DNA of 64,000 nt from assembly GCA_016198755.1 (NCBI GenBank), contig JACQIB010000005.1, positions 128,001-192,000 on the forward strand. Reading direction: 5' to 3'. A program made the translations under genes and the position numbers. Source of the DNA: Candidatus Aenigmatarchaeota archaeon. GTDB lineage: Archaea > Aenigmatarchaeota > Aenigmatarchaeia > Aenigmatarchaeales > JACQIB01. The notes below the pieces were generated by a model. That model did not search any database. It worked only from the letters and a program-made list of their open reading frames with translations, and was not told where the DNA came from. Positions 51,847 through 57,190 of this stretch are shown here, in pieces (position 1 is the stretch's first letter; each line of letters opens with the position of its first letter).

Positions 51847-52338
51847 ATGGTTGTTGAGCTGATACCTTTGGACTGGATTCCTATTGTACAGCTATATGGA
51901 CCGCTGGGTCTTTTTGTATGGAACTTTATATCAGGTTCTATCATTCCACTGAGCAATGAGATACCTATTGTGGGTGCAACAGCATTTTTAGATCCTTTAA
52001 CAATTTTTATTTACTCTACTCTTGGAACATGGGTTGGGGGACTTACAAACTATTATATTGGATATAAAGGGATAAACACATGGTGGGCAAAGAGAGACCC
52101 AAGAGCAGAAGCAAAGGCACAGAAGTTTTTCAAAAAATGGGGAGATATTTTATATCTTGGTGCCTCGGAAATACCGTTTATAGGAGATCCGCTGCTTATT
52201 GTGGCTGGGGCTGCAAAAGCTGACTTCAAAAGATTTGCTGTTCTTACTTTAGTTGGAAAGGGAATAAAAGTTGCACTTTTTGTTTTGGCTGGAAGGCTTA
52301 TTTTAGGCTGGTTTGGAGTGCCAATACCTATCGTATAA
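51847..52338 (+). CDS. DedA/VTT (YqaA-like) membrane protein
   Basis: IIPLSNE, GGLTNYYIG, IPFIGDPL. Confidence 0.85.
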   Translation: MVVELIPLDWIPIVQLYGPLGLFVWNFISGSIIPLSNEIPIVGATAFLDPLTIFIYSTLGTWVGGLTNYYIGYKGINTWWAKRDPRAEAKAQKFFKKWGDILYLGASEIPFIGDPLLIVAGAAKADFKRFAVLTLVGKGIKVALFVLAGRLILGWFGVPIPIV

Positions 52339-52765
52339 TCTTTAGGCTGGAACCTATTTTTATATTGTTTTTGGCTGTGAACCCGCCTGGAGCTTCGAGA
52401 ATATACTTTGCACCTGTTGGGGGGGAATATACTGGACAATCTGCAATTTTGCATGGAACCATTTTTTGAATATATACAACTTTCAAATCCTGCGATATCC
52501 AGATAGCATCCAGATCATAGTATACATTTTTCATCCATAAACTATACTTATCCTCTTTATTGAAAACAAAGAACATACCCTCTGGAAGAACTGCCCTGTA
52601 CATTAATCCTGTTTCCTGATCCTGCTCTGTTTGTGCAAGTTCAGCATTTACTCTTATACCATTGTCAAATTCCAGAACCACACTTTCTTTTTTTGGAAAA
52701 ATAAATATCATGGAAACCGTTAGAAGTATGGCTATTCCTACTATAGCAAACAAAACCTTTTTCAT
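52328..52765 (-). CDS. DUF192 protein
   Basis: GLMYR, GMFFVF, WMKN, YILE. Confidence 0.9.
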   Translation of the reverse strand: MKKVLFAIVGIAILLTVSMIFIFPKKESVVLEFDNGIRVNAELAQTEQDQETGLMYRAVLPEGMFFVFNKEDKYSLWMKNVYYDLDAIWISQDLKVVYIQKMVPCKIADCPVYSPPTGAKYILEAPGGFTAKNNIKIGSSLKIIR

Positions 52766-52802
52766 GCAACCTATTTATCAATTGAAGGGTTAAATAGGTT
52801 TC

Positions 52803-52820
52803 GGGCCCGTGGTCTAGCGG
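52803..52820 (+). pseudogene. 5' tRNA remnant (positions 1 to about 18)
   Basis: GGGCCCG-TG-GTCT-AGCGG, then abrupt AT-rich sequence; TTTATCAA box 29 nt upstream. Confidence 0.65.
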
Positions 52821-52883
52821 ATGCTAAATATGTGATGTATAATAAAAATCTATTTATTTGGTCTTGTCCATAGCTTAAATGGA

Positions 52884-53861
52884 ATGATAACAATGAGACT
52901 CTTGATAAAAAACAAAGATGATGTATTCCAAACTTTATTTGAAAGAACCGGCTTGACGCGCGGACAACTTGCAAAAATAATAGGTGTTAGTTACTGGACA
53001 CTAAAACATTGGCTACGGGATTACACTGTACCGGAAAAATATTTCATAAAATTAAGTCATATTTGCCCAGAAATTGAAGATATTGCAATCTGCGAAAAGC
53101 TTCCAGATAACTGGGGTGCTGTTAAGGGTGGTAAAATTTCTTTTTGTAAGAAGAGTAGGTATGCTATACTTAAACAAGCCGAAAGAGCCAGAAATGGTAT
53201 AATATACAAATTTAAATCGCCTCCGTTTAATAGAGATTTCTGCGAATTTTATGGAATATTGCTAGGAGATGGTTGTGTATTCAAATTTTTTGTAAAGAGT
53301 GAGAATCGTACCAGATATAGTGTTTCTGTAAGCGGTAATAGTATTAATGATTTAGAGTATTTCAAAAATAATATTTTACCATTAGTTAATCGCCTCTTTG
53401 GGTTGTCACCATCTATCATATATTATAGCTCTTGTAATGGTATTAGAATTGATATTAGATATAAGGTAATGGCAGATGTGTTTTTGAAGCTGGGGTTCCC
53501 TTTAGGAAAGAAAAAAGAACTTTCTATACCAAATAAGATTCTAAATTCTGGCATGATAAATATAAACAGGACAATAAGAGGTTTATTTGACACTGATGGT
53601 TGTTTTTTTGCAAGAAAAGATGAAAACTATCTCTATCCTCATATTATGATAACGAGTTATAGTGCAAACTTGCGTAACCAGCTCGTAGAAATTTTAAAAA
53701 GACAAAACTTTCGTCCCTATATACACTCTACAAATGTAGTTATACGAGGGAAGAAAAATATTATAAAATGGTTTGGTAAGATAGGATCGTCTCACCCTCA
53801 AATATTAAATAGATATAAGACATGGAAGCTTACAGGAAGATTATTGCCAAAGGGCCCATAG
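52884..53861 (+). mobile_element. Free-standing HTH + double-motif LAGLIDADG homing endonuclease gene
   Basis: HTH LTRGQLAKIIGVSYWTLKHW; FYGILLGDG and IRGLFDTDG; no intein termini; AT-rich. Confidence 0.85.
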
Positions 53862-53927
53862 ATCAATTGGAAGATCGCTACCTTCGCAAGGTAGAGGCTC
53901 CGGGTTCAAATCCCGGTGGGTCCACCA
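53852..53927 (+). tRNA. tRNA-Ala(CGC) with encoded CCA
   Basis: Full cloverleaf, CTACC-TTCGCAA-GGTAG, G3:U70, GGTTCAAATCC. Confidence 0.95.
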
Positions 53928-53940
53928 CAAACTTTAGAAA

Positions 53941-54894
53941 TTAATTAACAACATTTGTAGGTACATCACGAAGGAAGCTTTCTATATTGCTAATGAATGT
54001 CTCCTGTTTATTCAATCTTGCCTCTTTTGTTGCAAATGCAAGTGGGGGGTAAAGCACGCAATTTTTATAGTTTGATAGGGTTTTTATCAAATCTGGTAAC
54101 ATCTCATCTGTATGGTCTGCAATATAAACCATATCATTTTTTGCAAGCCTACTTTCCAGAGCAGAGAAATCTATAAGCTCGTTCGGTGATAGATTTACAA
54201 AAATTGCACCGGGCTTTATTTTTCTTATTTTGACTTCGTTCATGAAGAGGTTTGTATCTTTATTCCATGGAAGGTTTATAGATAAAAAATCTGACTCTGC
54301 CAATAGTCTGTCTATATCTTTATACTTTATTCCCTTTTGTTCTGCCTCAGGCTTCCTGTTTCTAGACCAATAATATACATTTGCACCAAATGCTAGAGCC
54401 AGCTCAGCAATCCTATAACCTATCCTTCCTAGCCCTATCACACCAAAGTTCTTTCTCATTATCTCGTATATAGGGAATTTTGGAACCTCGGAAAAATCCC
54501 CCTCACGCGCAAGTTGTTTTGAGCGCTCCAGGTCGCGTATATATTCTAAAATTGCACCAATGGCAAATTCCGCAACAGCTTCTGTACTAAAACCTGGGAT
54601 ATTGCAAATTGGAATATTTTTCGTTTTTGCATACTCTGGTTCTGCTTTCCCATAAGCTGTGGAGTATACACCAATATATCTTAGATTTGGAGCTGCATCA
54701 ATAAACTCCCTCGTAATAGGTACTGCAAATATGTTTGACAAAAGACAGTCTGCTCCCCGTAATTCTTCTACTATGTTTTGGCTGTCTTTTCCTAGTTTTA
54801 CAATATTATTCCCAAGGGAGTCGAGCCTTTGCCAATGCTCAGAATCTAAGAGTGCATCAGAAAAACCCAGCATTACTATTTTTTTAAATGTCAT
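53941..54894 (-). CDS. D-2-hydroxyacid dehydrogenase family protein
   Basis: STEAVAE, GVIGLGRIG, SDFLSINLP. Confidence 0.88.
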   Translation of the reverse strand: MTFKKIVMLGFSDALLDSEHWQRLDSLGNNIVKLGKDSQNIVEELRGADCLLSNIFAVPITREFIDAAPNLRYIGVYSTAYGKAEPEYAKTKNIPICNIPGFSTEAVAEFAIGAILEYIRDLERSKQLAREGDFSEVPKFPIYEIMRKNFGVIGLGRIGYRIAELALAFGANVYYWSRNRKPEAEQKGIKYKDIDRLLAESDFLSINLPWNKDTNLFMNEVKIRKIKPGAIFVNLSPNELIDFSALESRLAKNDMVYIADHTDEMLPDLIKTLSNYKNCVLYPPLAFATKEARLNKQETFISNIESFLRDVPTNVVN

Positions 54895-54944
54895 ATTATA
54901 TACTTCATATTAAAGCTTTTAAGCTTTTCGAATTTGCGATTGGT

Positions 54945-55193
54945 TTATTTCAGCCTTCTTAACAGGTAGTTGTAAGCCACTGCAAAGATGTAGCCGAAAG
55001 CCAGTGCCATTGCTAATGTTCCAATCAAGCCATATGCCATTAGAGCTGGACTTGACCAGAAGCCTGGATAAAGCAGGTTTACCATAGATGGTTGTTGCAT
55101 AAGTCCATGGTATACATAGCCTGCCAGATCCATTAGGAATGTTACTGCTGCAAGTGCTACTGCCATAGCTTTCGGATTTATTTCATTTCCCAT
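54945..55193 (-). CDS. Small two-TM membrane protein
   Basis: Start ATG 55193 after GGGGTGA SD; two hydrophobic helices. Confidence 0.7.
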   Translation of the reverse strand: MGNEINPKAMAVALAAVTFLMDLAGYVYHGLMQQPSMVNLLYPGFWSSPALMAYGLIGTLAMALAFGYIFAVAYNYLLRRLK

Positions 55194-55259
55194 GTTCTTC
55201 ACCCCCAGAAATATTGGGTTGTTCTTACCTTTAAAAATATGCGGCACAAACACTGAAAC

Positions 55260-55392
55260 GGCCCGATGGCTCAGACTGGTTAGAGCACCACACTGATAAT
55301 GTGGGGGTCGAGAGTTCAAAGCTCAGGGGGACGTTTCCCCCTACAGCCCTACCCCCTCTTGGTGGAGCTGGAAAATCTCTCTCGGGCCACCA
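55260..55392 (+). tRNA. tRNA-Ile(GAT) with a 55-nt T-loop intron (55321-55375)
   Basis: GGCCCGA/TCGGGCC acceptor, CCACA-CTGATAA-TGTGG, GAGAG-TTCAAA[intron]T-CTCTC, CCA. Confidence 0.9.
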
Positions 55393-55506
55393 CTTAATCT
55401 TTTACCGGAAACTTCTGCTGGGAGTATAACACTGTTATATTAGTGGACCTTGTATAGCGATTTGCGCTTCATAAGGAGTTTAAATAATGAGCAAGAGTTT
55501 TGCTGT

Positions 55507-55791
55507 ATGTTAGATGGTGTGTGGTATTTGGGACAAACCATAGATGCTCCTTTGAAAAATGGAAGAAAAACCCCAGTTCACCTATATTCCGAGGGAAGTG
55601 ATCCAAAGCCATTTGGAAGCTATGCTGATGCAGCAGCAATGGCCATGAAATTTAATAGCGGACACTGGGAAGGACAACCAACAACAGGGGGCTCATGGAC
55701 TGTTTATAGTATGAAAGAACTGAAAGGAATGAAAATTACAAACCCACCGGCAAGGCCAAGGTCTGCTGCTGAAATACCGGATCTAGAATAG
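55507..55791 (+). CDS. Hypothetical protein
   Basis: ATG 55507 is 28 nt after TTTAAATA. Confidence 0.5.
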   Translation: MLDGVWYLGQTIDAPLKNGRKTPVHLYSEGSDPKPFGSYADAAAMAMKFNSGHWEGQPTTGGSWTVYSMKELKGMKITNPPARPRSAAEIPDLE

Positions 55792-55801
55792 TGCTTTATA
55801 G

Positions 55802-57190
55802 TTAAGGAGCCACACCAAATATCCTCTTGATTAAGTTGATAAGATCCTGCAGAAGCTTTGCAAAAGTATTTATACATGCCCCATCACTGCAGCCGTTTGG
55901 ACAGGTTGTTTTATAGCTCAAAACTTGATTACCCTGACAATAGTATTCTGTTAAATTATTCTCTGCGCAGCTGTCTTCAGATATGCTGCCGTCTATTCCC
56001 ACAACAACCCCGCGTTCAGAAACTGATATGCCCTTATCGCTGTCTGTACAAATCTGTGATTGTGGAAGAGAAAGTGTTGTCTGGCTTGCCCCAGGGGTAG
56101 CACAAACAGAATTAAGACAGTATCCGCTTAAACAATAATTATGAGTTGAACATGGATATCCGTCTGGCGCAGTGCCCCTTATTGTAGTTGGGAAGAGAGT
56201 TGTTGTGGTTTGTCCAGCAGCTGTGGTTGTTGTCTGGATTGTAGTGGTTGTAACACTGGTCGCACCTGGACCAGCACCGCCTGCACCACCGGAAGTGGTT
56301 TGTGTCACACCACCGGAAGTTGTGGTTGTTGTGTTCGTGCAGACAGAACTGACAGAATTCCATATACATCCAGCAGCTCCGCAGCTCAATGAACCACATG
56401 CTGTACAGTTAGCAAGTGAGCAGGGAATTGTTGTTGTAGTTGTTGTTATAGTTGTGCTGGTTGTGGTTGTCGTAGTAGTTGTTGTAGTTCCGCCTGAGGA
56501 AAGGTAATAAGACGTTATTTCGCTATCACCTAAAGATCTGTTGTAAATTTTTAAGTCATCTATATCAGTATCCACTGCTGTGTCTCCAATTATTATGTCA
56601 ACGTGAGGCATTGCCGTGGGCTCAGCGTATTCACCCCCAGAACTTGAGTGAATCAATTGGGTATCAAGATAATAAGCTGCACTGTTAGCATCCCTTTTGA
56701 ATACAACATGGTGCCACTGGCCATGTGTCATGTTGTTTGGATTGCTTACTTGTCTCCAATAACCTGTAGAGCTGCTTCCAAAACCTGCTATTACAGGACC
56801 AAAATTATATTGGTTCCATAATTGCCTGAATATATAGAAATTATAATTTGTTGGACCGTTCCCTTTGTACACTAGATTCTGTGCAAAGCTTTGGTCTGAG
56901 CGCTGCCTGAACCAGAAGGAAATTGTATATGTCTGTAAATCGAAAGAACTGTTATAGGGAATTTTTAGCCAGTCTGAAGCTGAAGGAATATAAGCATAAC
57001 TTCCTACCTGCCCGCCTGATTTGTAGGAAACTCCACCTATAATTGCAGCAGCTGCTCCGCCGGAAACTTCGTTGTTCCCGTTCCCGTCAAACTTCCAGTA
57101 TCCCACTAATCCGTCTTCAGCTAAAACTGAAGTTGAAAGAACGGAAATGGAAATTAGAAGAGTGAAAGCTACAATAAACTTGTTTTTCAT
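55802..57190 (-). CDS. Secreted LamG-like protein with Thr-rich linkers and Cys-rich modules
   Basis: Signal peptide, LVGYWKFDG, QWHHVV, IDDLKIYNRSL, poly-Thr, CTDSDKG ... LTEYYC ... CPNGCSDGAC. Confidence 0.88.
   Translation of the reverse strand: MKNKFIVAFTLLISISVLSTSVLAEDGLVGYWKFDGNGNNEVSGGAAAAIIGGVSYKSGGQVGSYAYIPSASDWLKIPYNSSFDLQTYTISFWFRQRSDQSFAQNLVYKGNGPTNYNFYIFRQLWNQYNFGPVIAGFGSSSTGYWRQVSNPNNMTHGQWHHVVFKRDANSAAYYLDTQLIHSSSGGEYAEPTAMPHVDIIIGDTAVDTDIDDLKIYNRSLGDSEITSYYLSSGGTTTTTTTTTTSTTITTTTTTIPCSLANCTACGSLSCGAAGCIWNSVSSVCTNTTTTTSGGVTQTTSGGAGGAGPGATSVTTTTIQTTTTAAGQTTTTLFPTTIRGTAPDGYPCSTHNYCLSGYCLNSVCATPGASQTTLSLPQSQICTDSDKGISVSERGVVVGIDGSISEDSCAENNLTEYYCQGNQVLSYKTTCPNGCSDGACINTFAKLLQDLINLIKRIFGVAP

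Follow-up and report, generated by a model that had tools for sequence, protein, structure and literature searches.

Organization of the locus

The subject of this report is a gene for a LAGLIDADG homing endonuclease in a 64,000-nucleotide (nt) stretch of the genome of a Candidatus Aenigmatarchaeota archaeon, the whole of which is referred to here as the window (G000:C3:128001-192000; the assembly, with 40% guanine plus cytosine (GC), comprises 0.89 Mb in 6 contigs and is 89% complete). The gene lies between an 18-nt fragment of a transfer RNA (tRNA) gene, hereafter the stub, and a complete tRNA-Ala(CGC) gene, inside which its open reading frame (ORF) ends (Table 1). At the level of sequence, the endonuclease gene is shown to interrupt the resident tRNA-Ala(CGC) gene at the D-arm, with tRNA function kept by the complete tRNA that abuts it, and the arrangement of stub, ORF and tRNA appears as a repeated outcome in this enzyme family.

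Table 1. Features of the endonuclease locus and its surroundings (window coordinates)
Feature	Position	Strand	Remarks
DUF192 gene	52328..52765	-	Pfam DUF192, 8.6e-28; conserved left neighbour, anchor for comparison with relatives
TATA-like box TATTTATC	52772..52779	+	Promoter of the old tRNA gene, now preceding the stub, ~30 nt upstream of it
tRNA 5' stub GGGCCCGTGGTCTAGCGG	52803..52820	+	Acceptor strand, U8, 5' strand of the D-stem, D-loop through G18-G19
AT-rich spacer	52821..52883	+	Separates the stub from the ORF; left end of the insertion
Homing endonuclease ORF, 325 amino acids (aa)	52884..53861	+	Alternative start ATG 52893; stop TAG 53859-53861 inside the tRNA
N-terminal helical (helix-turn-helix (HTH)-like) domain, residues 13-60	52920..53063	+	Weak Pfam HTH_3; four helices in the model
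First LAGLIDADG motif, FYGILLGDG, residues 122-130	53247..53273	+	
Second LAGLIDADG motif, IRGLFDTDG, residues 231-239	53574..53600	+	
tRNA-Ala(CGC)	53852..53927	+	Complete, G3:U70, encoded CCA; ARAGORN; Rfam 67.8 bits
2-Hydroxyacid dehydrogenase gene	53941..54894	-	Pfam; right neighbour
tRNA-Ile(GAT)	55260..55392	+	With T-loop intron

The acceptor strand of the stub is perfect and AT-rich DNA begins after G18-G19, although the stub may reach 52823, should it have lost one base. With up to 3 mismatches allowed, GGGCCCGTGGTCTAGCGG has a single occurrence in the window, where shuffled sequences gave an expectation of 0.01; the 5 other matches genome-wide at that threshold are all genuine tRNA 5' ends, and the reversed sequence has 0 matches in the whole genome. 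By these controls the stub, first noticed at 52803 in an original prediction made by reading the window unaided, is not a chance resemblance. Alignment of 42 tRNA upstream regions placed the promoter box of this genome, a AAGGCTTTTAAA-like element, at about −31 to −24, and the stub has TATTTATC at just this canonical position; the TATA-like box that had been pointed out at 52774 falls inside it. We infer that this box drives transcription of the locus.

The last codons and stop of the ORF, GGC CCA TAG, are positions 2-10 of tRNA-Ala(CGC), the stop being U8-A9-G10, much as had been proposed. The D-arm of this tRNA (GATC / AATTGGAA / GATC) is of the tRNA-Ala(UGC) type, and its first 27 nt are identical to the genome's own tRNA-Ala(UGC) at 24/27 positions. 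The stub and the adjacent tRNA-Ala(CGC) are identical at 10/18 positions only, with the acceptor sequence GGGCCC common to both. No promoter box stands at the consensus distance from the complete tRNA-Ala(CGC); an AT-rich, TATA-like run inside the 3' end of the ORF lies 8-9 nt beyond that distance.

The endonuclease

The protein is a single-chain, two-motif LAGLIDADG homing endonuclease as judged from its motifs, profile match and predicted fold. The 325-aa ORF scores 33.4 bits against Pfam LAGLIDADG_3, above the cut-off of 22.5, and 18.6 bits against HTH_3, below the cut-off of 23; the N-terminal domain is common to the homologues L014, L022 and L065. Both motifs are intact and each ends in a conserved acidic residue: among 24 aligned homologues, the residues without any variation are G124 in the first motif and G233 and D238 in the second, and conservation reaches 90% or more at G128, D129 and G130 of the first and at D236 of the second. 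The AlphaFold2 model (predicted local distance difference test score 84.3, and >90 over most of residues 117-317) has a small helical domain at the N-terminus and two LAGLIDADG domains of the alpha-beta-beta-alpha-beta-beta-alpha topology known from I-DmoI. Foldseek matched it to I-LtrWI, PI-PfuI, the TliVMA intein, I-Tsp061I and I-DmoI at E values of 8.4e-9 to ~2e-7; for I-Tsp061I and I-DmoI the template-modelling score (TM-score) normalised to target length is 0.73 and E is about 1e-8 to 1e-7. By sequence, the only matches among solved structures are inteins of the V-ATPase, at E ~0.009. With a GC content of 32.7% against a genome mean of 40.3%, the ORF falls in the lowest 1% of 4427 equal-sized genome windows. 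The original description of an HTH and LAGLIDADG protein encoded in AT-rich DNA holds, the HTH match being the weak one.

A Pfam search of the 325-aa ORF found no intein or Hint family, and the gene has its own start codon with non-coding DNA upstream. An Rfam search of 52000-56000 found no group I or other intron RNA family at E values up to 10. Both results agree with the earlier view that an intron-less gene without a splicing domain is lodged in a tRNA gene.

The site in relatives

Forty relatives were searched with the DUF192 protein and 8 loci were read. All four same-family relatives with a DUF192 orthologue (G001, G002, G003 and G006) carry, within tens of bases of that gene and divergent from it, a tRNA-Ala(CGC) gene free of any endonuclease gene, while in the four loci from other families no tRNA follows the DUF192 gene. 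The endonuclease gene is thus present in the window and absent at the conserved tRNA site in 4/4 same-family relatives; the endonuclease query found no match in G001, G002 or G003, and only a marginal one in G006 (E=3.9e-4). In G001 the order is DUF192, tRNA-Ala(CGC), 36 nt and tRNA-Ile(GAT), which is the order of the window minus the stub, the ORF and two further genes. The original prediction had looked to relatives for an intact tRNA at the position of the stub, and all four have one.

In three of the four (G001, G002 and G006) the 5' part of this tRNA-Ala(CGC) is of the stub type (GGGCyxGTGGTCTAGTGGAATGAC), and the stub agrees with it at 16/18 positions by reading; in G003 the D-arm is of the GATC type, like that of the window's present tRNA. 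Similarity of the stub to the relatives' tRNAs ends after about position 20, which locates the break either in the D-loop or where the 3' strand of the D-stem begins. Since the orthologous site holds an endonuclease-free tRNA-Ala(CGC), mostly of the stub type, the stub is, as read from these alignments, the displaced front of the resident tRNA-Ala(CGC), and not of a tRNA-Val, to which it had originally been assigned. Within the source genome, too, the closest tRNA to the stub is Ala(GGC), at 17/18, followed by Val(CAC) at 16/18, Val(GAC) and Val(UAC) at 14/18 each by reading, and Ala(UGC) at 11/18.

The same comparison bears on where the present tRNA came from. The relatives' acceptor strands begin GGGCTCG or GGGCCGG, whereas the stub and the present tRNA share GGGCCC, and for this reason the present tRNA may be chimeric, combining a local acceptor with a D-arm of the Ala(UGC) type, instead of wholly imported; a local duplication followed by a swap of the D-arm fits equally well as an imported tRNA. 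Of the proposal that the element brings its own tRNA, the fusion to a different-looking tRNA stands, and import becomes one possibility among others in view of the shared GGGCCC and the 24/27 match to Ala(UGC). D-arms of the GATC type usually occur once per genome among the 61 genomes compared, and twice in the source genome, in Ala(UGC) and Ala(CGC); D-arms of the GTCT type occur in 18/61.

In two of these relatives the tRNA-Ala(CGC) near DUF192 (L071 in G006 and L072 in G002) holds an ORF-less D-loop intron of ~90-130 nt, a few bases from the break point in the window, and also a T-loop intron. The D-loop of tRNA-Ala(CGC) seems to be a hot spot for insertion.

Stub and tRNA are not exons of one gene

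The D-loop introns just described, together with a source genome rich in non-canonical tRNA introns, those of the D-loop included, and two true endonuclease-bearing tRNA introns in relatives (L045 and L011), invite the reading that the locus is one tRNA gene with a very long D-loop intron of the bulge-helix-bulge kind, the stub being exon 1. Several results speak against it. As had been noted, the D-stems are incompatible: GTCT of the stub and GATC of the downstream tRNA would form only 2/4 pairs (G10-C25 and the wobble U13-G22). The downstream tRNA is complete by itself, with four arms. Cofolding formed no helix between the spacer at 52821-52883 and the 3' end of the ORF; it gave only the pairing of the GGGCCC palindrome, at −25.7 against −20.0 ± 3.5 for shuffled sequences, within 1.6 standard deviations. 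The introns of L045 and L011 differ from the window in having end helices of −29 and −40 kcal/mol and no duplicated tRNA end, and the Rfam search found no intron family at E up to 10. Because splicing of stub and tRNA could not yield a valid tRNA, and the ends of the supposed intron are not joined by a helix, a long intron is a very improbable account of the locus.

L045 (G037:C2) and L011 (G027:C16) are genuine tRNA introns with a LAGLIDADG ORF, in which long helices join the intron ends. The L045 intron lies at D-arm position 22/23 and has a Shine-Dalgarno-like AAAGGAGG at its start; that of L011 lies further 3'.

Equally far-fetched, in our judgement, is that the stub is the 5' half of a trans-spliced split tRNA, as in Nanoarchaeum, or an attachment (att)-type repeat left by an integrase. 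The stub does retain a promoter at the right distance, and a tRNA fragment, an insertion and a tRNA gene in succession are the usual footprint of an integrating element, according to PMC4033280. A split tRNA is opposed by the tRNA set, in which each 3' acceptor strand compatible with GGGCCCG has its own 5' partner (in an assembly that is 89% complete), and by the DNA past the stub, which is AT-rich and not a GC-rich pairing leader. An att repeat is opposed by the match of the supposed repeats at 10/18 positions only and by the gene content of the insertion: the single forward ORF of at least 60 aa between stub and tRNA is the one matching LAGLIDADG_3 and, weakly, HTH_3, and no integrase or recombinase ORF was found there, an antisense 67-aa ORF (52771-52974) being unscanned.

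The tRNA set itself is complete in the relevant species. Standard finders reported 14-24 tRNA genes and a scan for acceptor pairing about 42, the former undercounting because most tRNA genes hold several non-canonical introns. The Ala isoacceptors are all represented (GGC at C1:67784-67871, UGC at C2:195788-195917, and CGC in the window), as are the three for Val (GAC, UAC and CAC), so that no tRNA species of these two families is missing. A 'tRNA-Trp with 2196-nt intron' reported by ARAGORN on contig C5 is an artefact that spans ordinary genes.

Many tRNA genes of this genome (window 55260-55392; contigs C1, C2, C5 and C6) contain T-loop introns of 50-60 nt, which belong to three sequence families and share one position, after TTCAAA or TTCGAA. 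Family A is found in 7 genes, the window's tRNA-Ile among them, family B in 8 places and family C in at least 3; this looks like intron spread between tRNA genes. The tRNA-Ile had served the original prediction as the intact gene for comparison: it is present, and it is not free of introns.

Recurrence of the layout at tRNA genes

The protein has matches in 31/61 related genomes, the source genome included. We read 56 places (29 loci, 22 further matches, 3 named records and the genome's own two), which come from relatives and are not independent samples; one of them, L031, was left unclassified. At least 39/56 abut or interrupt a tRNA gene, in line with the tRNA linkage of homologues that the original prediction had called for. 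Relative to the 5' end of a tRNA on the same strand, the ORF ends anywhere from 170 nt inside to 75 nt upstream in 25 places, and its 3' end abuts or overlaps the 3' end of an opposite-strand tRNA in 11; two are the true tRNA introns L045 and L011, and in one (L003) a complete tRNA is followed by the ORF and a 3' stub. The tRNA link is less certain in two others, L017, a pseudogene 122 nt from a tRNA, and L021, beside a putative tRNA. Eight places lie inside 23S ribosomal RNA (rRNA), the large-subunit context being assigned by Rfam for L019 and by BLAST against L019 for the remaining loci; two lie inside very long ORFs and are probably inteins, judging by that context, and four (L013, L050, L061 and L064) have no abutting tRNA.

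Clear 5' stubs behind promoter-like boxes are present at the window locus, L010, L014, L028, L053, L058, L065 and L066, and L056 has a further stub of 8 nt, so that the order of stub, ORF and intact tRNA occurs in 8-9 places. (A strict regular expression for tRNA 5' ends caught only 3 of the stubs recognised by eye and was too strict for a census.) The stub is identical to the front of the adjacent tRNA in L066 (23 nt), where the endonuclease gene is broken, and in L028 (15 nt), where it is intact; it is clearly unlike it in the window, L010 and L065. The closest full-length homologue, L065 (labelled a Woesearchaeota metagenome-assembled genome; 34% identity, HTH domain included), also begins with a stub, and 38 nt of its tRNA-Arg(CCT) overlap with the ORF. 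In L067 (labelled a Paceibacterota bacterium; 31% identity) the homologue covers the 5'-terminal 57 nt of a tRNA-Ser(GCT), and the tRNA-abutting habit thus extends to a bacterium, which lacks the archaeal splicing endonuclease. Mirror-image 3' stubs occur in L003 and L062.

Could stub and endonuclease gene be unrelated, a tandem duplicate or rearranged tRNA-Ala having decayed and the gene, which may by now be immobile or domesticated, having landed later in a tolerant spacer? The genome's second copy of the gene, L002, sits by complete tRNAs without a recognisable stub, as do 16-17 of the 25 sense-oriented places, and the stub agrees with the present tRNA at only 10/18. Yet the four relatives with the locus have a single tRNA-Ala(CGC) and not a pair, and the stubs at 8-9 different tRNA genes are all cut off inside the D-arm (positions 8-23), and in every case a promoter box immediately precedes the stub and the ORF ends against an intact tRNA; unrelated events leave the mirror-image 3' stubs unexplained as well. 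Adjacency in 25/56 places, moreover, compares with a background of 19/799 for ORFs of at least 150 aa in the source genome whose end is equally near the 5' end of a tRNA on their own strand, and 2 of those 19 are the two endonuclease genes themselves. We regard two unrelated events as rather unlikely.

The paralogue L002 (G000:C1:67784-68732) is shorter, at 214 aa, and 33% identical; its match (C1:68014-68463, minus strand) lies between complete genes for a multi-intron tRNA-Val(UAC) and tRNA-Ala(GGC), and the ORF runs through the promoter box of the latter and 22 nt of the tRNA, with no stub seen. At several loci (L009, L026, L052 and L065) the ORFs, independent of one another, share a reading frame through the tRNA 5' end, which gives protein tails such as ALVAQFG and ALVAQLD, and in the window, L014 and L028 they stop at the UAG of tRNA positions 8-10. 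The ORF ends seem to be dictated by the sequence of the tRNA and not of the protein. In L028 (G034:C62) a helix of ~15 base pairs is possible between 1455-1470, in the spacer after the stub, and 2050-2066, where the ORF ends just ahead of the intact tRNA; an intron-end helix could have left it as a relic, or it could be a processing stem or a chance pairing of AT-rich DNA.

A proposed model for tRNA-gene homing

With the anatomy of the locus, the empty allele of the relatives, the intact motifs and fold of the protein, the unspliceable pair of stub and tRNA and the recurrent layout in hand, we propose that a free-standing LAGLIDADG gene with an HTH domain was probably inserted in the D-arm of the resident tRNA-Ala(CGC) gene as an intron-less homing cassette. 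The tRNA gene is kept whole without splicing because a complete tRNA-Ala(CGC) stands at the 3' end of the ORF. Insertion would leave the old promoter and tRNA positions 1 to ~20 behind as a dead stub. In this model the enzyme would cut the D-arm DNA of stub-type tRNA-Ala genes around positions 17-23. From there the right break end would invade a donor in which the ORF lies upstream of a tRNA, and the tRNA front and the ORF would be copied, the copied tRNA portion being either a front that resists cutting or the entire tRNA. On the left side the break end would be joined without homology, by end-joining, stranding the stub behind the old promoter, whereas homology on both sides would leave no stub, which would explain the stub-less places. 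The old promoter would transcribe stub, ORF and tRNA as one RNA, from which RNase P would free the tRNA, so that the endonuclease mRNA would in effect be a tRNA 5' leader. The cassette is probably shed in this way.

Several observations weigh against the model or parts of it. The TATA-like run in the 3' end of the ORF could, from its position, be an independent promoter of the tRNA, in which case co-transcription with stub and ORF is not required. A recognisable stub occurs in only 8-9/25 sense-oriented places. The relatives with an empty site belong to different genera, and an empty allele from the same species was not found; the public sequencing runs listed as containing the stretch are 4 groundwater DNA runs of one study, which may be the source of the assembly, with no RNA run among them, and their contigs yielded only fragments matching the tRNA, none across the stretch. 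The identical stubs and tRNA fronts of L028 and L066 would rebuild any target lying wholly within the tRNA, and immunity through a diverged front is therefore not general. Finally, the genome's own tRNA-Ala(GGC) has a D-arm of the stub type, and would be a target unless recognition reaches the anticodon stem.

Neighbouring genes

A dehydrogenase gene and a small membrane-protein ORF (window 53941-55195) separate the tRNA-Ala from the tRNA-Ile. As far as can be told, the 2-hydroxyacid dehydrogenase gene lies outside the element. It was found in 1/30 relatives searched (G010, 53% identity), where neither a tRNA nor an endonuclease gene adjoins it, and because only this one relative has it, the gene may have been acquired separately at this tRNA locus. 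Metagenome contigs with the dehydrogenase came from distant relatives only (≤38% identity) and showed no synteny.

Relation to known systems

Homing endonucleases are thought to persist in essential genes inside introns or inteins that remove themselves. To our knowledge, bulge-helix-bulge introns bearing endonucleases have classically been described from rRNA and not from tRNA. The enzyme of the window is an ordinary member of the LAGLIDADG family, sharing the single-chain double-LAGLIDADG fold with I-DmoI and I-Tsp061I of such rRNA introns (TM-score 0.73), and the setting of those enzymes recurs among its homologues, in the 8/56 places in 23S rRNA and in the true tRNA introns L045 and L011. 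It differs from them in the lack of an intron, in its tRNA host and in an extra N-terminal HTH domain, and a duplicated or replaced end, not RNA splicing, makes the host gene whole. The closest solved relatives by sequence, PI-PfuI and the VMA intein of Thermococcus litoralis (26% identity for the fold match; LAGLIDADG_3), are unlike it in that it has no Hint domain, no host protein and a start of its own.

The same logic, an intact gene plus a stranded terminus with no need for an intron or intein, is found in LAGLIDADG and GIY-YIG ORFs of fungal mitochondria; atp6 of Allomyces is reportedly a case of this kind. In the mitochondria of Endoconidiophora, free-standing endonuclease genes lie between cob or atp6 and a displaced partial copy of the gene's end (PMC6279837). 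Like these, the ORF of the window separates an intact host gene from a truncated duplicate of that gene's end. The fungal hosts are protein-coding genes with a displaced C-terminal end. In the present elements a tRNA gene plays the part of host, it is mostly the promoter-bearing 5' end that has been displaced, and ORF and tRNA are physically fused.

Among phages, T4 encodes SegB, a free-standing GIY-YIG endonuclease located between tRNA genes that cuts intergenic DNA (PMC2988022). SegB is likewise both located in and targeted to a tRNA gene region, and is inherited by co-conversion of flanking tRNA DNA; it belongs to another enzyme family and to a phage rather than a cell, and the portions of PMC2988022 at hand describe neither a tRNA stub nor an overlap of ORF and tRNA. 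In Caldiarchaeum a tRNA fragment is followed by a 1.8-kb recombinase insertion and a tRNA gene (PMC4033280, citing Sugahara 2012). There too a mobile insertion separates a tRNA fragment from an intact tRNA gene, with the difference that the insertion encodes a DNA recombinase, and for that reason moves by site-specific integration, while the element of the window has a homing endonuclease gene but none for a recombinase. According to PMC6125680, the 39 archaeal group I introns are all located in rRNA. In the sections available, the tRNA-gene reviews PMC4033280 and PMC4090602 treat only integrating viruses, plasmids and the recombinase insertion, and the terms 'homing' and 'homing endonuclease' are absent from the first and the second, respectively. 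LAGLIDADG genes abutting or fused to tRNA genes with stubs were not described in the literature searched; such ORFs could be listed in the gene tables of papers on small-genome archaea and on bacteria of the candidate phyla radiation.

Implications

The element at this locus occupies a tRNA gene without recourse to an intron or intein; a duplicated or swapped tRNA end keeps that gene whole, and normal tRNA processing perhaps trims off the endonuclease message. Elements of this kind may be shed by the processing of tRNA ends, by RNase P on the 5' side and by tRNase Z on the 3' side. We suggest, tentatively and as a broader claim than we would expect to hold, that the small-genome archaea of this clade, and at least one bacterium of the candidate phyla radiation, might harbour a class of LAGLIDADG elements with a third harmless way of life beside introns and inteins, namely homing into tRNA genes with a replacement tRNA end.

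If this is true, the stray tRNA fragments and odd tRNA alleles of ultrasmall archaeal genomes would be explained, and annotators would be warned that ORFs running into tRNA genes can be real. The enzymes would constitute a natural set of meganucleases with short, conserved targets in tRNA genes. A concrete selective force behind the spread of non-canonical tRNA introns would be identified. The D-loop and other non-canonical tRNA introns of these lineages would be decayed endonuclease-bearing introns or breakers of the target site, which would make the Randau-Soll idea directly testable.

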